Notes: generated by a model from the letters alone, not told the origin. 64,000 nt of DNA from Chloroflexota bacterium (GCA_038040265.1 JBBPIP010000008.1:24844-88843); one strand, 5' to 3'. Counted from the stretch's first letter, positions 30,939-46,385 are shown. Made by a program: numbers and translations.

Positions 30939-31369
30939 GCGAAAACGCGGCGTGCGTCTTTTGCCGCATCCTCGCCGGTCACGAGAAGGCGAGCTTCGTC
31001 GCCCAGGGAACCGACGCGGTCGCCTTCCTCGATCTGCATCCGATCAACGAGGGCCACACGCTCGTCGTTCCGCGGAAGCACGCAGCCTCGATCAGCGAGG
31101 TGGACGAGGTCGCGGCAGTCGCGATGTGGTCGCTCGCCCGGCGCATCGCCGCGGGGCTGCGCGTCTCCGGTCTGCGCTGCGAGGCCATCAACCTCTTTCT
31201 GGCGGACGGCGCCGTGGCCGGTCAGGAAGTCTTTCACTCGCACCTGCACGTGATCCCGCGCTTCGAGGGCGATGGTTTTGGAATCAAGTTCCCGCCCCAC
31301 TACGGCGCGGCGGCCGAGCGCAAGGCGCTCGACGACATCGCCGCCCGGCTCCGCAAGCGACTTTCCTGA
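30935..31369 (+). CDS. HIT-family (histidine triad) protein
   Basis: CVFCRI... and the HSHLHVIP histidine triad. Confidence 0.9.
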   Translation: MSENAACVFCRILAGHEKASFVAQGTDAVAFLDLHPINEGHTLVVPRKHAASISEVDEVAAVAMWSLARRIAAGLRVSGLRCEAINLFLADGAVAGQEVFHSHLHVIPRFEGDGFGIKFPPHYGAAAERKALDDIAARLRKRLS

Positions 31370-31385
31370 TCGAGCGGCCCCTTCG

Positions 31386-31403
31386 CCAGTTGACGTAAAC
31401 TGG
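31386..31403. promoter_or_regulatory. 18-bp near-perfect palindrome, candidate MerR-type operator
   Basis: CCAGTTGACGTAAACTGG: 6-bp perfect arms CCAGTT/AACTGG around an ACGT-centred core, 7 nt upstream of the MerR-family ATG. Confidence 0.35.
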
Positions 31404-31409
31404 CGGGCG

Positions 31410-31808
31410 ATGGCGACGGCGGCGCCGAGCTCTTCGTACCGGATCGGGGAGTTGGCCGCGAAGGTCGGGTTGACCGAGCGGACGATCCGCTACTACGAGG
31501 AACGCGGCCTCCTTGAGTCGGTGAAACGACTCGACGGCGGGCAACGCGTGTACACCGACGATGACGTTCGCAGGCTCAAGTTCATCCAGAAGCTGAAGGT
31601 GCTCGGTCTCTCGCTCGCCGAGATGCAGGAGCTCGAAACGCTCTACGGTCGGCATCACACCAATGACAAAGTGCTGCCGCGCCTGATCGAGCTGCTCGAC
31701 GCCCACCTCACCACCGTGAGCGAGCGTCTGCGCGAGCTCGCCGCGCTCCGCGATGAGATCCGCTCGTACCGCCAGCACGTGACGAAGCGGTTGGAAGAAG
31801 CAAAATGA
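31410..31808 (+). CDS. MerR-family transcriptional regulator
   Basis: YRIGELAAKVGLTERTIRYYEERGLL helix-turn-helix. ATG at 31410 chosen inside ORF 31272..31808. Confidence 0.85.
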   Translation: MATAAPSSSYRIGELAAKVGLTERTIRYYEERGLLESVKRLDGGQRVYTDDDVRRLKFIQKLKVLGLSLAEMQELETLYGRHHTNDKVLPRLIELLDAHLTTVSERLRELAALRDEIRSYRQHVTKRLEEAK

Positions 31809-31896
31809 GCGAGGAGCAGCTTTGCTGCGACGAGCGAATCCCACCTGCCGGAGGCGCGTCTTCGCGGCGAAGCCGCGAGATTGGGCAAGAAGCCAA

Positions 31897-33069
31897 ATGA
31901 GCGCCGTCATCCTGGGCGCGGCTCGTACTCCGATCGGTGCGTTTCTCGGTGGCCTCGCGCCGCTGTCCGCACCGAAGCTCGGCGCGATCGCCATCAAGTG
32001 CGCTCTCGAACGAGCCGGCGTAGGCGCCGACCAGGTCGACGAGGTGTTCATGGGGAACGTCGTGCAGGCGGGTGTCGGCCAGGCACCGGCACGACAGGCG
32101 GCGCTCGGCGCGGGAATCCCGAACTCGGTCCCCTGCACGACGATCAACAAGGTCTGCGGGTCCGGTTTGAAGTCGGTGATGCTCGCCGCGACGCAGATCG
32201 CGGCCGGCGAGGCTCGACTCATCGTCGCCGGTGGGATGGAGTCGATGTCCAACGCGCCGTATCTCGCGCGCGGACTGCGCGCCGGCCTCCCCCTGGGCGA
32301 GCACAAGCTTGAAGACGCGAACCTCACCGACGGTCTCATGGACGCGTACGGTCACGGGCACATGGGTCTCGGCGGCGAGATCGTGGCCGAGCAGTGCGGG
32401 CTCGGCCGCGAGGATCAGGACCGCTTTGCCCTCGGGTCCTACGAGAAGGCGCTCCGCGCGCAGGGCGAGGGCGCGTTCGACGCGGAGATCGTCCCGGTCG
32501 AAGTCCCAGGCCGCAAAGGTGTGGTGACCCTCGTCAACAAGGATGAGACACCGCGCGAGACGAGCCTCGAGTCGCTCGCGAAGCTCCAGCCCGCGTTCAA
32601 GGCCGGCGGGACGATCACGGCGGGCAACGCCTCGAAACTCAACGACGGCGGCGCCGCGGTCATCGTCGCATCGGAGGAGCGCGCGCGGGAGCTCGGCGCA
32701 AAGCCAATCGCGCGGATCGTCGCCCAGGCACAGTTCGCGCACGAGCCCGACCTCTTCCTCGCGGCGCCCAAAGGCGCGATCGAGCGCTGCCTGAAGAAGG
32801 CCGGCTGGTCGATCGCAGATGTGGATCTCTTCGAGGTCAACGAGGCGTTCAGCGGAATCGAGTGCGTGCGCCGCGAGCTCGACATCCCCGAAGAGAAGTT
32901 CAACGTGAACGGCGGGGCCGTGGCTCTTGGTCATCCGATCGGCGCGTCCGGCGCGCGTCTTCTGGTGACGCTTCTCTATGCGCTGCGCGCGCGCTCCAAG
33001 AAGCGCGGTGTCGCGTCGCTCTGCCTCGGCGGTGGCGAGGCGGTCGCGCTCGCGGTCGAGCTCACGTAA
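31897..33069 (+). CDS. acetyl-CoA C-acetyltransferase (thiolase II)
   Basis: MSAVILGAARTPIGAF..., active-site Cys (NKVCGSGLK), C-terminal GLCLGGGEAVA-type motif. Confidence 0.95.
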   Translation: MSAVILGAARTPIGAFLGGLAPLSAPKLGAIAIKCALERAGVGADQVDEVFMGNVVQAGVGQAPARQAALGAGIPNSVPCTTINKVCGSGLKSVMLAATQIAAGEARLIVAGGMESMSNAPYLARGLRAGLPLGEHKLEDANLTDGLMDAYGHGHMGLGGEIVAEQCGLGREDQDRFALGSYEKALRAQGEGAFDAEIVPVEVPGRKGVVTLVNKDETPRETSLESLAKLQPAFKAGGTITAGNASKLNDGGAAVIVASEERARELGAKPIARIVAQAQFAHEPDLFLAAPKGAIERCLKKAGWSIADVDLFEVNEAFSGIECVRRELDIPEEKFNVNGGAVALGHPIGASGARLLVTLLYALRARSKKRGVASLCLGGGEAVALAVELT

Positions 33070-34238
33070 TGGCGACGACCACGGCGGAGACCGGCTTCGA
33101 CCTCACGCTTACCGAGGAGCAGGAGCTGGCCCAGCGGACCGCGCGTGATTTCGCCACCGAAAAGGTCCTTCCGCGCGCAGCCGAGATCGACGAGCAGGCC
33201 AAGATCCCGCCCGAGCTTCTCCGCGAGATGGGAGCGCTCGGTTTCATGGGGACTTACGTGCCTGAGCGGTACGGCGGCTCCGGCCTCGACATCGTCTCCA
33301 ACGTTCTGATCATCGAGGAGATTAATCGCGCGTGCGCGTCCACCGGCGTGGCGCTCTGCACGCACATATCGCTTGCCGTCGACCCCATCCTGCGTCACGG
33401 AAACGAGGCGCAGAAAGAGAAGTACGTTCCGAAGCTCGCTCGCGGCGAGTGGATCGGCTGCTTCGCGCTGTCAGAGCCGGCGGCGGGCAGCGATGCCGCC
33501 GCGATGCGCACGACCGCGCGGCGCGACGGCGACTCCTGGATCCTGAACGGCACCAAGAACTTCATCACCAACGGATCGATCGCCAACGTCGCGATCGTGT
33601 TCGCGCAAACAGACCCAGCGCAGAAGCACAAGGGCATCGCCGCGTTCATCGTCGAGAAGGGCACGCCCGGGTTCTCGGTTGGAAAGCTCGAGAAAAAGCT
33701 AGGGATCTGTGGATCGGACACCGCGCAGCTGATCTTTCAGGACGCGCGCGTCCCTGCCGCGAACCTACTCGGCGAGGTGGGACAGGGATTCAAGATCGCG
33801 CTCTCGACGCTGGACGGTGGGCGCATCTCGATAGCCGCGCAGGCCGTCGGGATCGCGCGCGCCTGTCTCGAAGACTCGCTCGCGTACGCCAAGCAGAGGG
33901 AGGCGTTCGGCAAGAAGGTCGCGGACTTCCAGGCGATCCAGTGGATGCTTGCGGACATGGCCACCGAGATCGACGCCGCGCGCCTCCTGACCTGGCGGGC
34001 CGCGGCGCTCAAGGACGCGGGGGAAGACCACGTCCTGGCTGCCGCGCAGGCGAAGCTCTTCGCGAGCGACGTGGCGGTCAAGGCATCGCGCGACTGCGTC
34101 CAGATCTTCGGCGGGTACGGCTACCTGAGAGACTTCCCCGCCGAGCGCCATTATCGCGACGCGAAGATCACCGAGATCTACGAAGGGACTAGCGAGATCA
34201 TGAAGCTCGTCATCGCGGAAGAGATCTTGAAGGAATGA
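33069..34238 (+). CDS. short-chain (butyryl-type) acyl-CoA dehydrogenase
   Basis: ATG overlaps the thiolase TAA. ACAD motifs ([47 protein letters not shown]). Confidence 0.93.
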   Translation: MATTTAETGFDLTLTEEQELAQRTARDFATEKVLPRAAEIDEQAKIPPELLREMGALGFMGTYVPERYGGSGLDIVSNVLIIEEINRACASTGVALCTHISLAVDPILRHGNEAQKEKYVPKLARGEWIGCFALSEPAAGSDAAAMRTTARRDGDSWILNGTKNFITNGSIANVAIVFAQTDPAQKHKGIAAFIVEKGTPGFSVGKLEKKLGICGSDTAQLIFQDARVPAANLLGEVGQGFKIALSTLDGGRISIAAQAVGIARACLEDSLAYAKQREAFGKKVADFQAIQWMLADMATEIDAARLLTWRAAALKDAGEDHVLAAAQAKLFASDVAVKASRDCVQIFGGYGYLRDFPAERHYRDAKITEIYEGTSEIMKLVIAEEILKE

Positions 34239-34250
34239 GGCGAGCGAGGA

Positions 34251-34287
34251 GCGGCGCGCTTCGCGCTCAGGGGCCCCTGCCCCTGCC
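34251..34287. repeat. short dispersed GGGGCCCC-core motif (inverted orientation)
   Basis: GCGCGCTTCGCGCTCAGGGGCCCCTGCCCCTGCC lies just after the acyl-CoA dehydrogenase stop. It is the reverse orientation of the 1549 copy. Confidence 0.6.
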
Positions 34288-34353
34288 GACGACGAGTGAG
34301 CCCAGCAGCCGTGAGCGTGTCTCCGCGGCGTCAGCCGCGAGATTGATCAAAGA

Positions 34354-36345
34354 GTGATCGCGCCGACCGGCGGGTTCGTCATTGGCGGTGCGATCCTGCT
34401 GGTGCTCGCCGCGCTCGGGTTCGGCGCGTTCACCTGGCGCTCGTGGCGCCTCTACCAATACATGCGACTAGGCCGCGACGAGGCGCGCATCGATCACCCC
34501 TGGCGGCGCCTGCGCGACGAGCTCGTCGTGTATCTCGGTCAGCGCAAGCTCCTGAAGCGGCCGTATTACGTGCGCGGCCTCGCGCACGCGTTCATCTTCT
34601 GGGGATTCATCGTCATCACGATCGGGACGGTGGATCTGCTGGTCAGCGGGATCCTCGGTTTTCACGTTCCCGGAACGGGAAGCGGGCTCTTCGCGTGGAC
34701 CATCGACATCTTCGCGATCCTGGTGCTCGCCTCGATCGCGATCGCCCTGGTCCGTCGTCTGTTCTTCCCGCCCCCGCGCATGCATGTGGCGCTCGACGGG
34801 TACGTGATCCTCGGGATGATCGCGGTGCTCATGCTGACGCTTCTCGTCTTCGAGGGCGCGGGCTTGTCGGCCGGTCTGCTGGAGAAGGGCTACACCGCGC
34901 CGCCGATCGCGAACGCGATCCTCAAGTCGATCTTCGCGAAGAACGTCGCGGGCGTCGTGTTCCCGGTCGCGTGGTGGATGCACGTCGTGACCGTCCTCGC
35001 TTTCGCCGCATACCTCCCGCAGTCGAAGCACCTCCACATCGTCACGACCCTTCCCAACGTCTTCTTCCGCAAGCAGACTCCCCGTGGCGCTCTCTCGCTG
35101 ATCGAGGACATCGAGAACAAGGAGACCTTCGGCGCTGCCTCGATCCGCGACCTCTCGTGGAAGCAGCTCCTCGACGGGTACACCTGCACCGAGTGCGGCC
35201 GATGCTCCGACAACTGCCCGGCGCTCGCCACGGGGAAGCTCCTCGACCCGCAGAAGATCGTCCTCGACATCCGCGATCAGCTCCTGCGCGACGGCCCGAA
35301 GCTTCTCGCCGATCAGAAGGCGGAGACGACCCCGCCCGCTCATTACGTCGAGACCAAGCCGGAGGAGCTCTGGGCGTGCACGACGTGCGCGGCGTGCGTC
35401 GAAGCGTGCCCGGTCACGATCGAGCACATCGACAAGATCGTCGACATGCGCCGCCATCTGACGCTCATGGAAGGATCGGCTCCGCCCGAGGCGCAGCGCG
35501 CCATGACGAACATCGAGCGCGCGGGGAACCCGTGGGGCGAGCCGCGCGAGACGCGTGGGGACTGGGCAAAGGACCTGAACGTGCCGACCTTCGCCGAGAA
35601 GCCGGACGCGGAGTACCTCTACTTCGTCGGATGCGCCGCGTCGGTCGACCGTCGGAACCAGAAGGTTGCGCGGGCTCTGGTGCAGGTGCTGCGCGCGGCC
35701 GACGTGTCGTTCGCGATCCTCGCGTCCGAGGAGACGTGCAACGGCGACCCGGCGCGGCGCATCGGCAACGAGTACCTCTGGCAGACGCAGGCGCAGCAGA
35801 ACATCGACACCTTCAAGAAGTACGGCGTGCGGAAGGTCATCGCGAGCTGCCCGCACTGCTTCAACACGATCGCCAACGAGTACCCGCAGCTCGGCGGAAA
35901 CTACGAGGTCATCCACGCGCTCCAGCTCGTCGATCGGCTCATCGCCGACGGCAAGCTCAAAGTCGGTCGGGGAATGTCGGAGGCCGTCGCCTATCACGAC
36001 CCTTGCTACCTCGGGCGGCACAACGACATCTACGACGAGCCCCGCGCCGTCATGGACGCGCTCCCCGGGGTCCAGCGCGTCGAGATCGAGCCGCATAACC
36101 GGGAACGCGGGTTCTGCTGCGGCGCCGGCGGGGGGCGCATGTGGATGGAAGAGAAGGTGGGCCAGCGGGTGAACCACCGCCGGGTCGAGCAGCTCCTCGC
36201 GCTCAACAGCGGCGCGACGAAGGTCGCGAGCGGGTGCCCGTTCTGCTTGATCATGCTCGAGGAGGGCGTCGGGGCAAAGGGCGTGCAGGAGCAGATCCGG
36301 CCCGTGGACGTCCTCGAGCTCGTCGCGGGGAGGATCGAAAGCTAG
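34354..36345 (+). CDS. membrane-bound Fe-S oxidoreductase, EtfD-like (HdrD/GlpC-type CCG domains); probable ETF:quinone oxidoreductase
   Basis: N-terminal polytopic region, two 4Fe-4S motifs (CTECGRCSDNCP, CTTCAACVEACP), and two CCG-type cysteine motifs (CPHCFNT, GCPFCLIM). Sits directly upstream of etfBA. Confidence 0.8.
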   Translation: MIAPTGGFVIGGAILLVLAALGFGAFTWRSWRLYQYMRLGRDEARIDHPWRRLRDELVVYLGQRKLLKRPYYVRGLAHAFIFWGFIVITIGTVDLLVSGILGFHVPGTGSGLFAWTIDIFAILVLASIAIALVRRLFFPPPRMHVALDGYVILGMIAVLMLTLLVFEGAGLSAGLLEKGYTAPPIANAILKSIFAKNVAGVVFPVAWWMHVVTVLAFAAYLPQSKHLHIVTTLPNVFFRKQTPRGALSLIEDIENKETFGAASIRDLSWKQLLDGYTCTECGRCSDNCPALATGKLLDPQKIVLDIRDQLLRDGPKLLADQKAETTPPAHYVETKPEELWACTTCAACVEACPVTIEHIDKIVDMRRHLTLMEGSAPPEAQRAMTNIERAGNPWGEPRETRGDWAKDLNVPTFAEKPDAEYLYFVGCAASVDRRNQKVARALVQVLRAADVSFAILASEETCNGDPARRIGNEYLWQTQAQQNIDTFKKYGVRKVIASCPHCFNTIANEYPQLGGNYEVIHALQLVDRLIADGKLKVGRGMSEAVAYHDPCYLGRHNDIYDEPRAVMDALPGVQRVEIEPHNRERGFCCGAGGGRMWMEEKVGQRVNHRRVEQLLALNSGATKVASGCPFCLIMLEEGVGAKGVQEQIRPVDVLELVAGRIES

Positions 36346-36465
36346 ATGGATCTCACAGACGGTCAGACGATCTTCGCGATCGCGTTCACCTTCGTGATGC
36401 TTGTCGTCGCGTTCGCGGTCGTGGCCTTCGCGCTCTGGTACTCGGGGGACCAACAGGAGATATGA
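36346..36465 (+). CDS. 39-aa single-TM micropeptide (hand-found, below the ORF-track threshold)
   Basis: ATG immediately follows the upstream TAG. MDLTDGQTIFAIAFTFVMLVVAFAVVAFALWYSGDQQEI. Stop at 36463-36465. Confidence 0.3.
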   Translation: MDLTDGQTIFAIAFTFVMLVVAFAVVAFALWYSGDQQEI

Positions 36466-36553
36466 AAATCGAGCGACGAGCGGTTCATCCGCGAGGAGCA
36501 AGACCACCAGTCTTGAACGTGTCTCGAGGCGCAGCCGAGAGATTGAGAAGGCC

Positions 36554-37321
36554 TTGAAGATCCTCATTCCGCTGAAGCAGGTGCCGGACTCGACCGTCCG
36601 AGTGAAGGTCGCGCCCGACGGTAAGTCCGTCGCCACCGAAGGCATCACCTGGTCGATCTCGCCGTATGACGAGTACGCGATCGAGATGGCGCTCGAGCGC
36701 AAGGACGCGGATCCCTCCACGGTCGTCGCCGTTGTCGCGGTTGGCCCGGCGCGTTCGCGTGACGCACTGCGGCAGGCGCTCGCGATGGGCTGCGACGAGG
36801 CCTCGCTCGTCATCGCCGATGCCGCCGCGCCGCTCGCCGTGGCGCGCGCCCTGGCGAAGGTCGTGGAGGAAGCGAAGCCCGACCTCGTCCTCTGCGGCAA
36901 GCAGGCCTCCGACGACGATCAGGGCTTCGTAGGACCGGCCCTCGCCGAGCTCCTCGGCTGGCCGCACGTCGCGACGATCACGAAGGTCGCCCCGACCGAT
37001 GGCGGCGTCGAGCTCTGGCGTGAGGTCGAGGGCGGTCACGAGGTCTGGAAGGCGCCGCTCCCGGCGCTGGCGACGGTGCACAAAAGCGAGAAGGAGCCTC
37101 GGTATCCCTCGCTGCCCGGGATCATGAAGGCGAAAAAGAAGGAGATCCCCGAGCGCCCCATCAGCGCGCTCGGTGTCGACGGTTCCGGCCCGACGTGGAC
37201 GGTCCTCTCGATGGAGCCGCCGCCGACGCGCGGGGGAGGCAAGATCCTCAAGGACGGCGACGCCAAGCAGATCGCGGAGCAGCTGGCGACCGCATTGCGC
37301 GATGAGGCGAAGGTCCTGTGA
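36554..37321 (+). CDS. etfB: electron transfer flavoprotein beta subunit
   Basis: LKILIPLKQVPDS... is the typical EtfB N-terminus. TTG at 36554 chosen inside ORF 36401..37321. Confidence 0.9.
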   Translation: MKILIPLKQVPDSTVRVKVAPDGKSVATEGITWSISPYDEYAIEMALERKDADPSTVVAVVAVGPARSRDALRQALAMGCDEASLVIADAAAPLAVARALAKVVEEAKPDLVLCGKQASDDDQGFVGPALAELLGWPHVATITKVAPTDGGVELWREVEGGHEVWKAPLPALATVHKSEKEPRYPSLPGIMKAKKKEIPERPISALGVDGSGPTWTVLSMEPPPTRGGGKILKDGDAKQIAEQLATALRDEAKVL

Positions 37322-38202
37322 AGACGCTCGTCGTCGCGGAGCGCAAGGGCAGCGAGCTCCGGCGAGTCACGCTCGAGCTTGCCGCGAAGGCGCGCGAGCT
37401 CGGGGAAGCCACGATCGTGGAGATCGCTGGCGAGCGCTACTCGCCGATGCCGTTCGTGTCCGCGCTCGCGAAGAAGGTCGAGTCGGAAAAGCCGGACCTG
37501 GTGCTACTCGGCGCGACGCTGAACGGGCGCGATCTGGGCGCGCGGCTCGCGGCGCGGCTCGGCCGCGCGTACGCGGCCGACGTGACCGGTCTCCGCGCCG
37601 AGGGGAACGCCGTCGAGGTCGACAAGCCGATGTACGCGGGCAAGGTGCGCGCGAAGCTGCGCGTCGACCTTCCGGCCGTCGTCTCGGTCCGACCGGGAGC
37701 GCTCACGCTGAAGGGCGCCGCGGACGCGCCACCGCAGGTGGAGAACATCGAGGCCGACACATCGGCCGAGAAGCTCACCTTCGTGAAGCTCGAGGGCACG
37801 GCCACCGCCGCGAAGCGCGTCTCGCTCTCGGACGCGCGCGTGATCGTGTCCGGCGGACGCGGGCTCAAGGGACCCGAGAACTGGCATCTCGTCGAGGAGC
37901 TCGCCGACGCCCTCGGCGGCGCGGTCGGTGCATCGCGTGCGGTGACGGACGCCGGATGGCGGCCGAACGAGGAGCAGGTCGGGCAAACCGGAAAGACGGT
38001 CACGCCGGATCTCTACATCGCCCTGGGCATCTCCGGCGCGATCCAGCACCTCGCGGGCATGACGTCGAGCAAGGTGATCGTCGCGGTGAACAAGGATCCC
38101 GACGCCGACATCTTCAAAATCGCCGACTACGGTGTCGTCGCGGACGTGTTCGAGTTCGTCCCAGCGTTCACCGAAGCGGTCAAGAAAGCGCGGGCCTCGT
38201 GA
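37318..38202 (+). CDS. etfA: electron transfer flavoprotein alpha subunit
   Basis: GTGA overlap with etfB. FAD-binding C-terminal motif (PDLYIALGISGAIQHLAGM). Confidence 0.92.
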   Translation: MKTLVVAERKGSELRRVTLELAAKARELGEATIVEIAGERYSPMPFVSALAKKVESEKPDLVLLGATLNGRDLGARLAARLGRAYAADVTGLRAEGNAVEVDKPMYAGKVRAKLRVDLPAVVSVRPGALTLKGAADAPPQVENIEADTSAEKLTFVKLEGTATAAKRVSLSDARVIVSGGRGLKGPENWHLVEELADALGGAVGASRAVTDAGWRPNEEQVGQTGKTVTPDLYIALGISGAIQHLAGMTSSKVIVAVNKDPDADIFKIADYGVVADVFEFVPAFTEAVKKARAS

Positions 38203-39347
38203 ATCCGTTCGTCGGCGCGACCGAGCGCGATCTCGCCCGGGCCGTCGCGGAGTGGTCCTCGACGTTGACCCCGCGCATCCCTGCCGCCGAGAAGGAAGGG
38301 GCGCTGCCCCGCGACCTGATCGCCGAGCTCGGGCGCCTCGGCGTGCTCGGCATGACCATTCCCGAGGCCGACGGCGGACTCGGTGCATCGGCGGTCGCGT
38401 TCGCGCTGGTCCTCGAGGAGCTCTCGGCGGCGTGGCCTTCGCTTGCCGTCGGGGTCGCCGTCAACAGCGGGATCGTCGCCGGGTCCGTCGTGCGCTACGG
38501 CACGCCGGAACAGCGCAAGCGCTGGCTGCCGAGGCTCATGGACGGGACCGGGCTCGGTGCGTTCGCCCTGACGGAGCCGACCTCGGGGAGCGACGCCGCG
38601 TCGCTCCGCATGACGGCGCGACGAGAGGGAAGCGCGTGGCGGATCGACGGGCGAAAGCAGTTCATCACCAACGCGCGCTACGCCCCGTTCGCGATCGTGC
38701 TCGCGCGGGTCGGCGAATTCGATCCCAAACGATCGAGCGCAGGGATCACCGCGTTTGTCGTCCCGCTCGACGCTCCCGGCGTTTCGATCGGGCCCTCCGA
38801 GCGCAAGCTCGGGCTTCAAGCGTCCGACACGAGCGCGCTGATCCTTGACGACGCCCGCGTCGGCGAGGATGCCATCCTCGGCGAGGTCGGAAAGGGTTTC
38901 GCCATCGCGATGTCGGGGCTCGACGGCGGGCGCATCGGCATCGCCGCGCAGTCCGTGGGCATCGCGCGGCGGGCGCTCGAGATCGCGCGCGCGTACTCGC
39001 TCGAGCGAAGGCAGTTCGGCCGTCCGATCGCGGATTTCGAAGGATTGCGTTTCAGGATCGCCAAGGCCGACGGCGATGTGGCCGCAGCGCGCCTGCTTGC
39101 GCTCCGCGCAGCCTGGCTTCGCGACCGCGGCAAGCCGTTCACGCGCGAAGCTGCCATGGCCAAGCTCTACGCGAGCGAGATGGCGCAACGCGCGACGCAC
39201 GCGGCGGTGCAAATACTTGGCGGCAACGGCTACATGCGGGACTACGCCGTCGAGCGGTACGCGCGCGACGGCCGCGCCACGACGATCTACGAAGGGACGA
39301 GCGAGATACAGCGCATCGTGATCGCGCGATCGCTCATCGCGGCATGA
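38199..39347 (+). CDS. acyl-CoA dehydrogenase
   Basis: GTG at 38199 overlaps the etfA TGA. ACAD motifs ([45 protein letters not shown]). Confidence 0.9.
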
Positions 39348-41011
39348 CCATAGAAAAGACGAAGACCAAGAAGCAGCGCTGGCTCGAGGAGCTGTACGGC
39401 CCGGCGGTGAAGAAGCACCCCGAGCGCAAGGGGCGCTTCTCGACGCTCTCGGACGAGGTGATCGGGCCGCTCTACACGGCGGAGGACCTCGAGGGGTTCG
39501 ACCCCGACCGCGATCTCGGCTTCCCCGGGGAGTTCCCGTACACGCGCGGGGTGCAGCCCTCGATGTATCGCGGCCGGCTCTGGACGATGCGTCAGTTCGC
39601 GGGATTCGGCTCCGCGGAAGACACGAACGAGCGCTTCCACTACCTCCTGAAGCACGGCGTCGACGGCCTTTCGGTCGCGTTCGATATGCCGACGCTCATG
39701 GGACGCGACTCCGACGATCCGCTCTCGCGCGGCGAGGTCGGACGCGAGGGCGTCGCCGTCGACACCCTGCGCGACATGGAGATCCTCTTCGACCGCATCC
39801 CGCTCGACCGGGTCACCACGTCGATGACCATCAACGGTCCCGCCTCCATCGTCTGGGCCATGTACCTCGCCGCGGCGGAGAAACGCGGCATCCCGCTCGA
39901 TCGGCTCGGCGGGACGATCCAGAACGACGCCCTCAAGGAGTACATCGCGCAGCGCGAGTGGATCGTTCCGGTGAAGCCCGCCATGAATCTCGTGGTCGAC
40001 ACGTTCCGCTACGGCTCGCGCGACGTACCGCGATGGAACACGATCTCGATCTCCGGCTATCACATCCGCGAAGCGGGCGCGACTGCGCTGCAGGAGCTCG
40101 CGTTCACGCTCATCGATGGCCTCGAGTACGTGAAGTGGGGCGTCGAAGCCGGGCTCGACGTGAACGACTTCGTGCCGCACCTCTCGTTCTTCTTCGATGT
40201 CCACAACGACTTCTTTGAGGAGATCGCGAAGTTCCGCGCGGCCCGCCGCATCTGGGCGCGCGAGATCGAACGCCGCTACCACCCGACGAACGAGCGCGCT
40301 CTCCTCATGCGCACTCACGCGCAGACCGCCGGCGTATCGCTGACCGCACAGCAGCCGTACAACAACGTCGTCCGCGTGACGCTGCAGGCGCTCGCCGCGG
40401 TACTCGGCGGGACGCAGTCGCTCCACACGAACTCGCTCGACGAGACCTACGCCCTCCCGACGCAGGAGGCGGTGACCCTCGCGCTCCGGACGCAGCAGGT
40501 GATCGCCCACGAGTCCGGCGTCGCCGACACGATCGACCCGCTCGCGGGGTCGTACTACCTCGAGTCGCTCACGCAGCGCATGGAGGACGGCTTCGACCGG
40601 TACCTCAGCGAGATCGAGAAGATGGGCGGCATGGTCGAGGCGGTCGAGCGGGGGTATCCGCAGCGGGAGATCACCGAGGCCTCGTTCCACTTCCAGCAGC
40701 AGGTCGAGGAAGGGGAGAAGGTCGTCGTCGGGATCAACAAGTACGCCACGAGCGAAGAGGCACCGATCCCGACGCTCGCGATCGACCCCGACGTCGAGCG
40801 AAAGCAAAACGAGCGTCTCGCCGAGACGCGGAAGACGCGCGACCCGGGCCGCTGGAAAGAATCAATTGACGCACTCCGGCAGGCCGCCAAGAGCGGAGAC
40901 GAGCTCATGCCCAGGTTCCTGGAGGCCGCGAGAGCAAACGCAAGCGTCGGCGAGCAGGTACTTGTCCTGAAGGAGGTGTTCGGTGAATACCACGATCCGG
41001 GGTACTTCTAG
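39344..41011 (+). CDS. icmA: B12-dependent acyl-CoA mutase large (substrate-binding) subunit, isobutyryl-CoA-mutase-like
   Basis: [32 protein letters not shown] and [21 protein letters not shown]. The Phe in RQF and the Gln in IAQ occupy positions where methylmalonyl-CoA mutase has Tyr89/Arg207 (from memory). There is no B12 domain in this polypeptide. Confidence 0.88.
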
Positions 41012-42746
41012 GGACAGGGGTAGGGGCCCCTGGGCGCAGAGCGCTCTCGTCGCGAAGATATCTGGGGCGCACCGTTCGATGCGGGAGGCGATCGGGGCTC
41101 TGCCGGCGCCGCGCTGGGGCGAGAAGCTTCCAGCGGGCTGGACGCTGAAAGAGATGGTCGGCCATCTGGCGTACTGGGAAAGCACGATTCCCGCGTTCGT
41201 CGATTCGCTTCGCACCAGGACGCCGCGCGACGGCGACGCCGACGTCGACGAGCAGAACGCGCGCGCGGCGGCCGAGGCGCGCGGCCTCTCACGGGACGAG
41301 GTGCTGCGTCGCTGGGACGACTCGCATGCCGAGATGCTCGAGGTCGCGCGGGGCCTGACCGACACCGAGCTGGCGGACGACACGTTCATGAAGAAGTTCG
41401 AGGGCGAGAGCTACGGTCATTACCCGGACCACTACGCAGACCTCGCCGCCGCGATCAAGGACAAGGACGACGTCCTCGCGCTGGTGCAGACGTCGTGGAC
41501 CAATTTCCGCCTGGCGATCGGCTCCATCGGCCTCCCCGGCCTCGAGCGCGAGACATCCACCGGTTGGACATATAAGGACCTCGCCGCGCACGCCGCAGCT
41601 TGGGAGGACCGGACGGCGACGCGCCTCCGAACGTTCCGCGAGAGCGGGTCAAAGACGTACCCAGGCGTCGACGACACCGACGCGTTCAACGCCGCGGTGG
41701 TCGAGCGTACCCGCGGCCGCGGCGCCGGCGAGGTCGTCCGCGAGCTCGACGCCGCCCACGCGCGGATCGTCGACGAGATCGGGAAGCTGACGCCGAAAGA
41801 GATCCACGCGAACGACGATTGGGTCATCGCGGTCGTCGCGGGGAACACGTACGGCCACTATGCCGAGCACCTCGACGAGGTCTTCGCCGCGGTGCCGAAG
41901 CGTCCGGCGGAACTCCTCGACAAGATGCGCGAAGGCTGGCGGCCCTTCCGGCGCTCGCTGAACCGCATCGGCCTCTCCACGTTGTCGGAGACAACGCCGA
42001 CCGGCTGGACCTACAAGGGAATGCTCGGCCATGTCGCTCACTGGATGGAGAAGCTGGCAGCGGAGCTGCCGAACCGTCTCGAGGGCCGCCGCGGCCCCTT
42101 CCCCGACGTCGATGCCGAAAACGCGCGCGAGGCCGAGGCTGGGAGGTCGGTATCTGCGCACGACGCCGTCGAGCGCGTGCTTAACGCATACAAGGACGTT
42201 GTTGACCTTGTGGCGGCTCTTCCTGCGGACCGCGACATCAACTTCCTCGCGGTGCGCCTCGTCGTCGGCGAGACGTACGACCACTTCGCCGAGCATCGCG
42301 GTGAGCTCGAGGCCGCACTGCCACGGACCGCGGCCGCGTATGTCGACCGCATCGAGAAGGTCTGGAAGCCGTTCCGCGCCGCGATCCGCGACCGCGGTCG
42401 GGCGGGTCTGGGCGAGCGCACATCGAGCGGATGGACGTACAAGGATCTCGTAGCGCACGCAGCCGGGTGGATGGCGCAAACCGTGCGCGAGATGCAGACG
42501 ATGGAATTCCCGACGGGCTGGACCAAGGAGACGATCCAGGAATTCAATGACCGCTCCGTACGGACGCATGAGCTCGTCGGACCCGAAGCGATGATCGACG
42601 AGCTGGACACGCTGCATGACCGGCTCGTGGAGACCCTGCGCGGGCTGGGTGATGGCGCCGTCGACGAGCGCATCGCCGGCACGATGCCCTACTACACGTA
42701 CCTCCACTGGGAGGAGCATTTCGCGGAGCTCGGCGTTCCTCTGTGA
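40983..42746 (+). CDS. protein of four tandem DinB/YfiT-like four-helix-bundle repeats
   Basis: Four ~140-aa repeats. Each has GWTxK(D/E/G)(L/M)xxHxAxW and a C-terminal HxxxH (GHYPDH, GHYAEH, DHFAEH, LHWEEH). The 3' end overlaps the B12-subunit start (GTGA). The 5' start is uncertain (GTG 40983 or later). Confidence 0.7.
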
Positions 42747-43180
42747 AGCGACCCATCCGCGTCGTCGTCGCCAAGGCCGGTCTCGACGGTCACGATCGAG
42801 GCGCGAAGGTCGTGGCACGCGCGTTGCGCGATGCCGGGATGGAAGTGATCTACACGGGCGTGCACCAGACCCCGGAGCAGGTCGTCGAGACCGCGTTGCA
42901 GGAGGACGCCGACGCCATCGGCCTTTCGCTGCTCTCCGGCGCGCACAACTACATCTTTCCGCGGATCAGCGAGCTCATGAAGGAAAAGGGGCTCGATGAC
43001 GTGCTCCTCTTCGGCGGGGGCATCATCCCAGAGGCGGACTGGCCCGCGCTCTCGAAGGTCGGCGTGGAGAAGGTCTTTCCACCCGGGGCATCGCTCGAGG
43101 AGATCACCAAATACGTGCGCGAGGCCGTCCCACGGAAACGCGGCGGCATTGCCGCTGACCAAATAGCAGAAGGGGGATAG
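42743..43180 (+). CDS. icmB: acyl-CoA mutase small subunit (cobalamin-binding domain)
   Basis: [33 protein letters not shown] carries the DxHxxG B12-binding motif. 145 aa. Confidence 0.9.
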
Positions 43181-43182
43181 AC

Positions 43183-43563
43183 ATGGCGAAGAAGGACGAC
43201 AGACCGATCGATGCAGGGCTGGCGGCGCTAGTCGGCAAGAGCGAGCAGGAGCTCATCGACTTCTGGAAGACACGGTTCGGGCTGATCGCGGCGATACCGA
43301 TGGACACGGCGCGGGTCGGCGCGCTCACGCCTCAGCTCCGCGAGCTTGTGCGCATCGAGAATCGCGAGGAGCGCAAGCGGCTCACCACGGCGCGGATGAA
43401 GGCCTTCGCTCAGCTGCCCGGCGAGCAGCAGGAGCGGATCACGATGACGCGCAAGGCGGCATACGACGTCGACCGCGGCGTCCTCGAGGAAGACCAGAAA
43501 ATGGTCGACGAGATCCTGCCGACCCTCCCCGAGGCAAAGGGCTACCCGACGGCGGCGCGTTGA
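43183..43563 (+). CDS. hypothetical protein in the mutase operon
   Basis: 126-aa ORF starting 3 nt after the B12 subunit. No recognised family. Confidence 0.45.
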   Translation: MAKKDDRPIDAGLAALVGKSEQELIDFWKTRFGLIAAIPMDTARVGALTPQLRELVRIENREERKRLTTARMKAFAQLPGEQQERITMTRKAAYDVDRGVLEEDQKMVDEILPTLPEAKGYPTAAR

Positions 43564-43570
43564 GCGCCGT

Positions 43571-44704
43571 TTGAACTTCTCGTACCGGGAAGACCAGCTC
43601 CTCGTCCGCGACACGGTCCGCGACTTCGTGCGGTCGCGGATCGTTCCGAACGCGGCCGCATGGAACGAGAAGGGCGAGTTCCCGCTGGAGCTTCTCCCGG
43701 AGCTGGCCGCGCTCGGCCTGACCGGGTTGGCCGTACCGCATGAGTACGGAGGCGCCGAGCTCGACACGCTCTCCATCGCGATGGTGATGGAGGAGCTTGG
43801 CGCAGGCGACGGCTCTGTGGCGCTCACCTTGGCCGCACATAACTCTCTCTGCATCGGCCACCTATTGGTCGGCGCGAGCGACGAGCAGAAGTCGCGCTGG
43901 CTGCCTCCTTTGGCGCGCGGCGAGTACCTCGGTTGCTGGGCGCTCACGGAACCCTCGTCAGGTTCCGACGCGATCAGCGTTCAGAGCCGAGCCACGCGCG
44001 ACGGCGACGACTACGTCCTCACCGGGACGAAGCAATTCATCACCAACGGGTCCATCGCCGGCTTCGCCGTGGTGATGGCCGGCGCCGGGGAGCGGAAACT
44101 CTCGGCCTTCGGCATGCCGCGCGACGCTCCCGGTCTTCGCGTCGGCCGTCGCGAAGAGAAGATGGGGCTGCATGCGTCGGACACCGCGCAGCTCGTACTC
44201 GAGGACTGCCGCGTTCCGGCCGCCGACCGGATCGGCCGCGACGGCGAAGCCTTCAATGATGTCAAGCGGGTCCTGGACAAGGGACGCATCGGCATCGGCG
44301 CGCTCGCGATCGGGCTCGGCCGCGCCTCGCTCGAGGTCGCGATCGGCTACGCCAAGGAGCGCAAGCAGTTCGGCAAACCGATCGCGGAGTTCGAGATGAT
44401 CCAGTGGCGTCTCGCGCGTGCCCGTACCGAGCTCGACGCCGCTCGTTTGCTGGTGCATCGCGCCGCGACCCTCGCCGACGCCGGGCTGCGGTTCACGGAC
44501 GCAGCGGCGAAGGCCAAGCTCTACGCGTCCGAGGCTGCGACGCGCGCCGCCGATAACTCGCTGCAGGTGCTTGGCGGCTACGGATACTTACAGGACTTCC
44601 CGATCGAGCGGCATCTGCGCGACGTGCGCCTGATGGAGATCGGCGAGGGCACCAGCGAGATCCAACGGATCGTCATCTCGCGCGAGCTCCTTCGCGTGGA
44701 CTGA
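43571..44704 (+). CDS. acyl-CoA dehydrogenase
   Basis: ACAD motifs (CWALTEPSSGSDA, QVLGGYGYLQDFPIERHLRDVRLMEIGEGTSEIQ). Confidence 0.92.
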   Translation: MNFSYREDQLLVRDTVRDFVRSRIVPNAAAWNEKGEFPLELLPELAALGLTGLAVPHEYGGAELDTLSIAMVMEELGAGDGSVALTLAAHNSLCIGHLLVGASDEQKSRWLPPLARGEYLGCWALTEPSSGSDAISVQSRATRDGDDYVLTGTKQFITNGSIAGFAVVMAGAGERKLSAFGMPRDAPGLRVGRREEKMGLHASDTAQLVLEDCRVPAADRIGRDGEAFNDVKRVLDKGRIGIGALAIGLGRASLEVAIGYAKERKQFGKPIAEFEMIQWRLARARTELDAARLLVHRAATLADAGLRFTDAAAKAKLYASEAATRAADNSLQVLGGYGYLQDFPIERHLRDVRLMEIGEGTSEIQRIVISRELLRVD

Positions 44705-45651
44705 TGCCGGCATGGAGGACCGCGACCAGCGATCTGCTCGCTCGCGCGCGCTCGGGCGACAAGCGATCCATCGCACGGCTCGTATCGGTGGTCGAGAACG
44801 ACGAGCCGGGTGCCGCCGAGGCGATGCGCGCGCTCTACCCGGAGACCGGTCGCGCCCAGATCCTCGGGATCACCGGCCCGCCGGGCGGGGGCAAATCCAC
44901 GCTCGTGAACCGCCTTGCCGGCGCGTACCGCGAGCGCGCCGCGCGTGTCGCGATCGTCGCGGTCGATCCTTCGAGTCCGTTCAGCGGCGGCGCGATCCTC
45001 GGCGACCGCATTCGCATGCGCGAGCGATTCCTCGACGACGGCATCTTCATCCGCTCGATGGCCAGTCGCGGGCACGCCGGAGGCCTCGCGCGAGCGACCT
45101 CGCGTGTGGTGAACGTGCTCGACGCGCTCGGTACCGACGTCGTGATCGTCGAAACCGTCGGTGTCGGTCAGGAGGAGGTCGACGTCATTCGCGTCGTCGA
45201 CACGGTCTGCCTCGTGACGGTGCCGGGCCTCGGCGACGACATCCAGGCGATCAAGGCCGGGGTTCTGGAGATCGCCGACGTGCTCGTCGTGAACAAGTCT
45301 GACCGGCCCGGCGCGGACGAGACCGCGCGCGATCTGGCGCAGATGCTCTCCCTCGCCAAGGACCGCCCGTGGAAGACCCCGATCCTTCGTACATCGGCGC
45401 AGACCGGCGACGGATTGCCGCAGCTCGTCGAGGCGATCGACAAGCACCGTGCGTGGTCGCGCGAGTCCGGCGAATATCTCGAGCGCCGCCGTGGCGCCGC
45501 GCGCGCCGAGGTCGAAGCGCTCCTGCGCGAGGCGCTTCTCCGCGAGCTCGAGGGCCGCGTCGGCGAGTCGCGCGTCGATGCCGCGGTGGCTCGCGTGGCG
45601 GAACGCTCGCTCGACCCATACGCCGCGGTCGAGGAGCTCCTGCGCGGTTGA
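44704..45651 (+). CDS. meaB: MeaB/ArgK-type G-protein chaperone of B12 mutases
   Basis: P-loop GPPGGGKST, VETVGVGQ, and NKSD (VVNKSD). Confidence 0.92.
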   Translation: MPAWRTATSDLLARARSGDKRSIARLVSVVENDEPGAAEAMRALYPETGRAQILGITGPPGGGKSTLVNRLAGAYRERAARVAIVAVDPSSPFSGGAILGDRIRMRERFLDDGIFIRSMASRGHAGGLARATSRVVNVLDALGTDVVIVETVGVGQEEVDVIRVVDTVCLVTVPGLGDDIQAIKAGVLEIADVLVVNKSDRPGADETARDLAQMLSLAKDRPWKTPILRTSAQTGDGLPQLVEAIDKHRAWSRESGEYLERRRGAARAEVEALLREALLRELEGRVGESRVDAAVARVAERSLDPYAAVEELLRG

Positions 45652-46385
45652 TCGAGCTCACGATCTTCCGCACCGGCGGGGTCGAGATCGGCGGATCCGC
45701 GTTCATGCCGGGCGCAACCGAGGACAAGACATTCGTTCCCGTGTGGTCCGCCCTGCTGCGAACCCCGGAGGGCAACGTTCTCTTCGACACCGGGCTTCAC
45801 CCCGTGCATGTCGAGAGGCCTGACGCGACCTTCGGCCCGGGTAGCCTCAAGGTGGTCATGGCGAAGGAGGACGCGGTGGTCGCGCGGCTCGCTTCGCTCG
45901 GTGTTCGCCCGGACGACGTCGCCATCGTCGTCAACAGCCATCTGCATTTCGATCACGCCGGCAACAACGGCGCGTTCCCGAAGGCGACGTTCATCGTCCA
46001 GGGCGACCACCTCGCGTTCGCGAAGGGAAAGCCGAACTTCCCAGGCGTCTACTGGGACATCCCCGAGCTCACCTACATGCCGGTCGCCGGCCGAACCCGC
46101 GTCGCGCGCGGCCTCGAGGTCGTGCCGACGCCGGGACACGCGCCGGGTCATCAGTCGCTCGTCGTCGATCTGCCTGAGACCGGGCGCGTCGTGTTGTGCG
46201 GTGACGCGGCGTTCACGCGGGAAAACCTCGAGCGTGGCGAGATCCGCGCGCCCGATGAAGCGGCGGCGAAGGACTCGCTCGCTTTGATTCGATCTCTCGT
46301 CAACGACGACCTCGATCGCGTCTTCACGAGCCACGACGCCGCGAGCTGGCCAGGCTGGCGGCACGCGCCCGAGACGTACCGGTGA
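45648..46385 (+). CDS. MBL-fold metallo-hydrolase
   Basis: HxHxDH motif (SHLHFDHAGN) and downstream TPGHAPGH. TTG at 45648 overlaps the meaB TGA. Confidence 0.8.
   Translation: MIELTIFRTGGVEIGGSAFMPGATEDKTFVPVWSALLRTPEGNVLFDTGLHPVHVERPDATFGPGSLKVVMAKEDAVVARLASLGVRPDDVAIVVNSHLHFDHAGNNGAFPKATFIVQGDHLAFAKGKPNFPGVYWDIPELTYMPVAGRTRVARGLEVVPTPGHAPGHQSLVVDLPETGRVVLCGDAAFTRENLERGEIRAPDEAAAKDSLALIRSLVNDDLDRVFTSHDAASWPGWRHAPETYR

Follow-up and report, generated by a model that had tools for sequence, protein, structure and literature searches.

Tandem DinB/YfiT-like domains encoded between the two subunit genes of a B12-dependent acyl-CoA mutase in Chloroflexota

Adenosylcobalamin (AdoCbl)-dependent mutases are easily inactivated, and the dedicated helpers that serve them are a G-protein chaperone and an adenosyltransferase; this helper set is small and has been studied mainly in fused methylmalonyl-CoA mutase (MCM) and IcmF enzymes. 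Here we describe a gene of a Chloroflexota bacterium that lies between the genes for the two subunits of a B12-dependent acyl-CoA mutase and encodes four tandem domains of the DinB superfamily. The gene (40983..42746, + strand, GTG start, 587 residues) was found in a stretch of 64,000 nucleotides (nt; GCA_038040265.1, JBBPIP010000008.1:24844-88843; herein the window, in which all positions are counted) and was characterized using open reading frame (ORF) listing, Pfam, NCBIfam, homologs, AlphaFold2, and Foldseek. Described members of the family are homodimeric metalloenzymes in which a divalent metal is held by three His, or by two His plus Asp, and a low-molecular-weight thiol is bound via the metal, Asn, and Asp; the known activities of the superfamily are all thiol-dependent transfers or isomerizations (PMC10950700).

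The product (65.5 kDa, pI 5.5) resolves into four repeats of ~140 residues that can be aligned with one another end to end. Pairwise BLASTP of repeat against repeat gives 24 to 34% identity over ~140 residues (E 2.7e-10 to 1.8e-22; 42 to 74 bits), compared with 23 bits for the best of 200 shuffles. The repeats follow one another on the + strand at 41034..41462 (repeat 1, residues 18 through 160), 41463..41903 (repeat 2, residues 161 through 307), 41904..42329 (repeat 3, residues 308 through 449), and 42330..42743 (repeat 4, residues 450 through 587). Each carries the motif GW(T)xK...H.A.W, an invariant Asn, and a terminal Y.HxxxH, so that one early His and an HxxxH in the last helix recur in all four. 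These triads are H61 (41163-41165), H146 (41418-41420), and H150 (41430-41432) in repeat 1, which also shows the invariant N92 and W65; H203 (41589-41591), H292 (41856-41858), and H296 (41868-41870) in repeat 2; H350 (42030-42032), H434 (42282-42284), and H438 (42294-42296) in repeat 3; and H492 (42456-42458), H575 (42705-42707), and H579 (42717-42719) in repeat 4. The composition of the translated ORF includes no cysteine, and homologs have 0 to 2; as no cysteine is conserved, any thiol chemistry would require an external thiol.

Profile matches and the predicted fold both assign every repeat to the DinB superfamily. In Pfam, the whole protein matches MDMPI_N in four stretches (E 7.5e-23, 82 bits), DinB_2 in four (E 5.6e-21, 76 bits), and DUF1706 in three (E 1e-15, 58 bits); in NCBIfam, the TIGR03083 domain is matched four times (77 bits; cut-off 50). 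Taken singly, all four repeats score above the MDMPI_N cut-off of 24.2 bits (25.4 to 33.8 bits). Against DinB_2, repeat 1 reaches 39.3 bits and repeats 2 through 4 lie slightly below the cut-off of 24.8 (23.0 to 23.8 bits); against DUF1706, single repeats score 17 to 20 bits, under the cut-off of 24.2, and repeat 3 is unmatched. The matches are to N-domain profiles only: Pfam does not find the MDMPI_C C-terminal domain in the 587-residue protein, and TIGR03084, the NCBIfam model of the full maleylpyruvate isomerase, scores 41 bits against a cut-off of 248. Neither Pfam nor NCBIfam gives a P-loop/G3E (MeaB, CobW) or Cob_adeno_trans match in this protein at E <= 0.1. With four tandem domains per chain, the architecture departs from the homodimeric, single-domain norm; it is an architectural variant that is still within the DinB superfamily.

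An AlphaFold2 model built from an alignment of 21 homologs is compact and all-helical, with a mean predicted local distance difference test (pLDDT) of 85.8 and a predicted template modeling score (pTM) of 0.75. Such a pTM is high for a chain of 587 residues and suggests that the four bundles pack together in a fixed arrangement, not as beads on a string. High-probability Foldseek matches in the Protein Data Bank (PDB) are DinB-superfamily bundles only (probability 0.8 to 1.0; target TM 0.5 to 0.74; 13 to 18% identity to solved superfamily members). The top matches are ClbS/DfsB/DUF1706 structures (5cof, 7mtl, and 5civ; TM 0.64 to 0.71, probability 1.0), followed by MDMPI, YfiT, TTHA0303, MST, and the DinB domains of EgtB and SenA. 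When 24 single-domain relatives are combined into a profile and searched against PDB sequences, MDMPI (E 1e-4), TTHA0303, and YfiT (E 6e-4) are recovered. In these alignments, which end before the HxxxH, the first His of the triad falls opposite YfiT His67 and MDMPI His52; PDB 2nsg carries a mutation of the latter residue. A profile made from the four repeats alone is weak against the same sequences (YfiT, E 0.17). For repeats 2 and 3, the first His of the HxxxH lies ~2 residues inside the end of the DinB_2 alignment (profile position 120 of 128) and the second falls past it. The initial annotation, made from this DNA by eye, had proposed four ~140-residue repeats of the DinB/YfiT type, each with a helix-1 His and an HxxxH. 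The repeats, the assignment, and the triads in all four repeats hold up; the helix number does not, as the model places the first His on helix 2 of each repeat, behind a long N-terminal helix.

The gene overlaps its neighbors on both sides. Upstream lies the large, substrate-binding subunit of the mutase (39344..41011, + strand, 555 residues; PF01642, E 1e-214; TIGR00641; alignments to 4r3u, 1req, and 2xij), and downstream the B12-binding small subunit (42743..43180, + strand, 145 residues; PF02310; TIGR00640), in which the DxHxxG motif reads DGHDRG. The DinB ORF overlaps the large-subunit gene by 29 nt (stop TAG 41009-41011) and the small-subunit gene by 4 nt, as GTGA (GTG at 42743). A Shine-Dalgarno-like AGGAGG, read from the sequence at 40971..40976 (+ strand), sits 6 nt 5' of the GTG, within the 3' end of the large-subunit gene. 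Homologs share an invariant T3 and S9 at the N terminus, and repeat 1 can be aligned with the other repeats from residue ~20, ahead of the next ATG (M33); the start is thus at or adjoining 40983, and the four repeats are complete. The position between the two subunit genes, both junctions, and the start from which the initial annotation had measured the longer overlap (~29 nt) are all borne out, as is its MeaB-type G-protein downstream, a G3E GTPase and mutase chaperone (44704..45651, + strand; PF03308, E 2.9e-93).

Within 40983-41011, DinB residues 1 through 9 (MNTTIRGTS) are the +1 frame of the mutase C terminus EYHDPGYF*, and the N-terminal motif M-x-T-T-x-x-G-T-S that homologs share is the other frame of EY(H/R)DPGYF, as read from the window DNA together with the N termini of the homologs. 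The presence of this motif in two-, three-, and four-domain homologs indicates the same overlap, even where DNA context is lacking. Long ORFs in antisense or other frames, such as one of 389 residues antisense to the DinB gene (41649-42818, - strand), have no profile support and are the usual artifacts of high GC content; conservation is found in the + frame.

The large subunit resembles HcmA (4r3u; E 9e-162) most closely. Aligned with 1req, 2xij, and 4r3u, it has Phe at the position of MCM Tyr89 (RQF-AGF vs. RQY-AGF) and Gln at that of MCM Arg207 (IAQRE vs. MVRNT), which we take to be the signature of isobutyryl-CoA mutase (ICM), and it has Ala at the position of HcmA Asp117 (SVAFD vs. STDFD). 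These residues suggest that the flanking genes encode a split AdoCbl acyl-CoA mutase of the ICM type, with isobutyryl-CoA as its probable substrate. Two other identities were rejected: 2-hydroxyisobutyryl-CoA mutase (HCM) on the Ala at the Asp117 position, and MCM on the Phe and Gln at the Tyr89 and Arg207 positions.

The DinB gene is evolutionarily linked and translationally coupled to the B12-binding subunit and MeaB of this mutase. In a scan of one genome per GTDB species, the four-domain gene was found in about 25 species of Candidatus Limnocylindria (Chloroflexota), in which the gene order (herein type I) is constant: large subunit, DinB, B12 subunit, a 126-residue protein, acyl-CoA dehydrogenase (ACAD), MeaB, and a metallo-β-lactamase (MBL)-fold hydrolase. 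A metagenome scan, with a nine-sequence alignment as the query, showed the same order in dozens of contigs. The initial annotation had asked whether the placement recurs and had allowed for an unrelated insertion; with the placement recurrent, that option is now unlikely.

Four copies are not the defining state, as one-, two-, and three-domain forms occupy the same slot. Relatives of one to four bundles adjoin the gene for the B12-binding subunit in more than 100 Chloroflexota sequences. One-domain forms stand in the type I slot at nine loci (L030, L031, L124, L125, L128-L130, L136, and L155), a two-domain form at L159, and a three-domain form at L160, where the flanking sequences are VLKEVFGVYRDPGYF* and a stretch of 20 residues. 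All keep the identical 29-nt and 4-nt overlaps, and the 4-nt stop/start overlap with the B12 subunit is found at 32 type I loci. The B12 subunit lies <=2 kb downstream of the DinB gene at 33 of 65 GTDB loci, namely those with >= ~35% identity plus the fragment L034, and at no fewer than 52 of the 61 evaluable metagenome loci (>=52/61). None of the 32 more distant DinB singles (<=34% identity; Caldilineaceae, Anaerolineae, and others) is linked to a B12 subunit.

Near-identical copies of the operon also occur in metagenome-assembled genomes labeled Acidiferrales, Saccharimonadales, Methylomirabilota, and Udaeobacter (L025 and L034; P0073 and P0319), for which mis-binned contigs are a simpler explanation than transfer. 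At the single-domain locus L155 (14428-18540; GCA_038207785.1), the operon is followed by genes for a carboxyltransferase, a biotin carboxylase, a biotin carrier, and a second MM_CoA_mutase; this unit is probably a separate propionyl-CoA carboxylase/MCM set, with no adjoining DinB gene in the part seen.

A second operon type places a single-domain DinB gene in other company. In type II the order is folE (GTP cyclohydrolase I), single DinB, B12 subunit, and MeaB; it was found in about 50 metagenome contigs and in the genomes L032, L033, L035, and L037. The mutase subunits of the two types are 55 to 61% identical, and the type II large subunit has Gln at the Arg207 position as well. On the contigs that extend far enough (L112 and L115), ~3 kb containing other ORFs separates folE from the large-subunit gene upstream of it. 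Single DinB genes keep their place ahead of the B12 subunit and MeaB when the large subunit is encoded at a distance; the partner that is conserved is not the catalytic subunit but the small, B12-binding one, together with MeaB.

The type II loci (L032, L033, L035, L037, L072-L120, L152, and L153; e.g., L153 2685-5680) vary in detail. Some have an insertion of 0.5 to 1.6 kb between DinB and the B12 subunit, which in L035 and L037 holds an ORF suggestive, by eye, of a helix-turn-helix regulator. In L032, L152, and L153, MeaB is followed by 3-hydroxyacyl-CoA dehydrogenase and other fatty-acid genes. In L152 (6691-8127), directly 3' of DinB, the B12-binding domain and MeaB are called as a single product of 478 residues; as called, it is an IcmF-like partial fusion without the substrate domain, and the only fusion seen.

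Homologs of the 587-residue protein number 431, including hundreds of close ones of the same length from soil and sediment metagenomes; where a name is given, it is no more specific than "DinB family protein" or [quoted passage not shown] Across 35 distinct four-domain proteins (45 to 100% identity), 83 of the 587 positions are invariant, a set that covers the 12 triad His, four Asn, and, after the first His of each repeat, four Trp. This pattern argues for purifying selection on the repeats and their triads. In a domain tree, repeats 1, 2, 3, and 4 each form one clade across species, which indicates that the four-domain architecture arose once; single-domain forms fall nearest repeats 2 and 4, with repeat 2 the closest.

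Tandem DinB proteins also occur elsewhere. P0232 (L158 339-2031, GCA_030852865.1) is an unrelated four-domain DinB protein (24 to 29% identity) whose upstream gene is not a mutase, and further three-domain proteins of 467 to 480 residues are present in the representative library (P0195, P0198, P0225, and P0229). The position of P0232 away from a mutase means that tandem DinB proteins are not unique to the mutase system, and such architectures have arisen more than once.

The remainder of the operon is devoted largely to acyl-CoA metabolism. Its upstream part, at 31272..39347 on the + strand, was assigned using Pfam, orthologs in L001-L003, tblastn, and start contexts. It is headed by a MerR regulator (31272-31808; MerR_1 plus MerR-DNA-bind), possibly a LiuR-like regulator of branched-chain acyl-CoA catabolism, and continues, on the evidence of Pfam and orthologs and on the same strand throughout, with a thiolase (31822-33069), an ACAD (ORF 32862-34238), an Fe-S/CCG oxidoreductase (34354-36345), electron transfer flavoprotein (ETF) beta (about 36554-37321), ETF alpha (37318-38202), and another ACAD (38199-39347). 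Downstream of the B12 subunit, also on the + strand, follow the conserved 126-residue protein (43183..43563), an ACAD (43571..44704; Pfam), MeaB, and the MBL-fold hydrolase (45648..46385; ortholog PF00753 in L001-L003, 94% identity by tblastn). The last is the final conserved gene of the operon, with an inferred TTG start that overlaps the MeaB stop. An Rfam scan of the window returned no family, cobalamin riboswitch included.

The 126-residue protein has no Pfam or NCBIfam match and is conserved in synteny. It is basic (pI 8.0) and contains neither Cys nor His; its homologs number 676, of which the 120 listed are unnamed or "hypothetical." An AlphaFold2 model is a helical bundle (pLDDT 85), for which Foldseek found no meaningful fold match in the PDB. 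The gene follows the B12 subunit in nearly all evaluated type I operons (not in L028 or L137) and is absent from type II operons; its product may be a second mutase accessory. In the window genome, the large subunit, the DinB protein, the B12 subunit, and the 126-residue protein (39344-43563) all lack cysteine.

Fold, repeats, conserved triads, gene slot, overlaps, and variable copy number are thereby established, and the 587-residue protein is, judged from sequence, probably an undescribed helper of the mutase. Our tentative preference is for an accessory subunit that would work on the mutase's cofactor side, with the B12 subunit and MeaB, and whose metal/thiol pocket would handle cobalamin outside its catalytic state. 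In structure, the protein is an all-helical, cytoplasmic chain of four DinB/YfiT-type four-helix bundles joined head to tail, each with a complete, predicted three-His metal site and an adjacent Asn/Trp/Tyr pocket; the comparable pocket of BstA, MST, and MDMPI accommodates a divalent metal to which a low-molecular-weight thiol is bound. We infer metal and thiol binding here, and likewise any action on cobalamin. A single mRNA would yield the DinB protein and both mutase subunits via coupled translation, and the DinB protein would dock on the small, B12-binding subunit, with or without MeaB. Its pocket or pockets would then hold or process cobalamin other than catalysis-ready AdoCbl. One such activity might be a thiol-dependent step in which damaged cob(II)/cob(III)alamin is reduced, dealkylated, or removed, leaving the small subunit free to be reloaded. 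The single-domain relatives (153 to 179 residues) could act as dimers, DinB proteins being homodimers, and the four-domain chain would be a covalent version of the oligomer that they would form.

A stronger form of this proposal is that the protein is a previously unrecognized metal/thiol-dependent cofactor factor that binds the B12 subunit or MeaB and repairs, processes, or loads cobalamin; we regard this as doubtful. If true, it would make the protein a bacterial functional counterpart of CblC, or open a new route beside the adenosyltransferase, with a capacity tuned by tandem multiplication from one to four sites.

Several points weigh against a cofactor-side role. Contact of the DinB protein with any mutase component is an inference; we know of no DinB-family protein that acts on corrinoids, and the characterized split mutases (ICM and HCM) are active in vitro without such a factor. 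The geometry of the putative metal site is taken from sequence pattern and alignment rather than from three-dimensional superposition, and one His is lost in some repeats of two- and three-domain forms (P0147 and P0128). The DinB protein evolves faster than its neighbors, at 45 to 81% identity compared with 84 to 98% for the B12 subunit and 80 to 96% for the large subunit. The linkage was found in Chloroflexota only, and within each operon type it could be due in part to vertical inheritance. Finally, none of the listed homologs is a fusion of DinB to a B12-binding, MeaB, or mutase domain.

The alternative that survives best, although we consider it unlikely, moves the protein to the substrate side. 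It would then be an enzyme of the DinB/STL type, with metal-dependent activity as a thiol S-transferase, isomerase, or hydrolase. Its targets would be acyl-CoA pathway intermediates or reactive by-products, such as electrophilic enoyl-CoAs from the three ACADs of the operon, or it would use free CoA-SH as its thiol; in this way it would shield the pathway or the mutase but would not belong to the mutase as a subunit. Thiol-dependent transfer and isomerization are what the superfamily is known for (PMC10950700), and the active-site-like pocket is intact and conserved in all four repeats. The surroundings would also suit such an enzyme: a thiolase, three ACADs, ETF, and an ETF-oxidoreductase make the operon a unit of acyl-CoA oxidation, and 3-hydroxyacyl-CoA dehydrogenase, thiolase, or ACAD genes lie downstream in type II operons. 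However, this explanation does not account for coupling just upstream of the B12 subunit in two differing operons, nor for the persistence of the gene next to the B12 subunit and MeaB at loci that have the catalytic subunit and the ACADs in another place, and a detoxifying conjugation would waste a catabolic substrate.

A non-catalytic scaffold is less probable still. Here the DinB protein would be an assembly adaptor for the large and small subunits, and MeaB, and its His triads would bind a structural metal. The order large–DinB–small, with overlaps on both sides, suits ordered co-translational assembly, and the gene occupies the position that corresponds to the junction of the barrel and B12 domains in fused mutases. 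The compactness of the AlphaFold2 model and the rapid divergence at all but a few positions agree with an adaptor as well. However, one to four copies in one slot would be odd for a fixed stoichiometry, the repeats conserve a pocket of the ligand-binding type and not a surface, and the large subunit is not adjacent in type II loci.

Least probable is that the gene is a mere passenger: one of the many Chloroflexota DinB paralogs would have come to lie in the operon by chance and been passed on by vertical descent, and its function would have nothing to do with the mutase. DinB-family genes are indeed numerous and mostly stand-alone, relatives at or below 34% identity are not near mutase genes, an unrelated four-domain protein exists outside any mutase context (P0232/L158), and the linked cases all come from a single phylum, but the linkage to the B12 subunit persists across two operon architectures whose mutase subunits are only 55 to 61% identical, the coupled overlaps are conserved, the repeats and triads are under purifying selection, and domain duplications have been kept in place.

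To the mutase system these data add a third gene product, conserved and translationally coupled, that accompanies the B12-binding subunit and MeaB. If the protein is an accessory factor, it would bring a new fold, and possibly metal/thiol chemistry, into B12 cofactor handling, and it would provide a testable partner for a large superfamily most of whose members have no function assigned. The system is compact, with three to five genes and a single-domain version of 153 to 179 residues. If the protein is only a thiol transferase of the pathway, it would still be a rare DinB enzyme with a defined metabolic context.

Full-text searches of the literature library used found no paper in which DinB, DUF1706, or Limnocylindria is tied to a mutase, cobalamin, or MeaB, in keeping with the initial annotation, which knew of no described mutase accessory of this kind. 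The domain family is well known; the fourfold tandem, the series of one to four copies in one slot, and the linkage to the cofactor module of a B12 mutase appear to be undescribed. In its individual domains, the protein resembles BstA/YfiT, MST, and the N-domain of MDMPI, with which it shares the ~150-residue four-helix bundle, the DinB_2, MDMPI_N, and TIGR03083 matches, the C-terminal HxxxH, and the GWT...H motif; the Asn, Trp, and Tyr described near the site in MST have conserved counterparts in the window protein (PMC10950700). It differs from all three in having four domains per chain instead of being a single-domain homodimer and in being embedded in a B12 mutase operon, and from MDMPI in addition by the absence of the MDMPI C-terminal domain.

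The best structural matches of the model are to ClbS/DfsB (DUF1706), which comprise the colibactin self-resistance hydrolase and the sibling-lethal-factor precursor, and some single-domain relatives are named "ClbS/DfsB family four-helix bundle protein" by NCBI. However, single repeats score under the DUF1706 cut-off, the genomic context differs, and ClbS is not, to our knowledge, known to use a His3 metal site, whereas the triad is invariant in the window family. The N-terminal DinB domains of the sulfoxide/selenoxide synthases EgtB and SenA, which were among the Foldseek matches (8k5j, 8vii, and 4x8b), supply His ligands to a catalytic metal; there the DinB domain is fused to an FGE-like domain and works with iron and oxygen, whereas the window protein has no FGE-like domain.

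Among mutase helpers, the MeaB/MMAA G-protein and the PduO-type adenosyltransferase are, like the DinB gene, encoded with mutase genes, but the DinB protein has neither a P-loop nor their Pfam matches, and its fold is unrelated. A literature search on the glutamate-mutase MutL analogy returned mismatch-repair papers only. In clostridial glutamate mutase, GlmL (MutL) is an accessory gene flanked on one side by the gene of the B12-binding small subunit and on the other by that of the catalytic subunit, in the order small–L–large; its product is ATPase-like and related to diol-dehydratase reactivase, not to DinB. CblC/MMACHC is a thiol-dependent cobalamin processor that acts ahead of mutase loading; it is nitroreductase-like, has no metal site, and is eukaryotic. 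As working analogies, GlmL/MutL would be the nearest to the DinB protein in gene arrangement and CblC the nearest in proposed chemistry.

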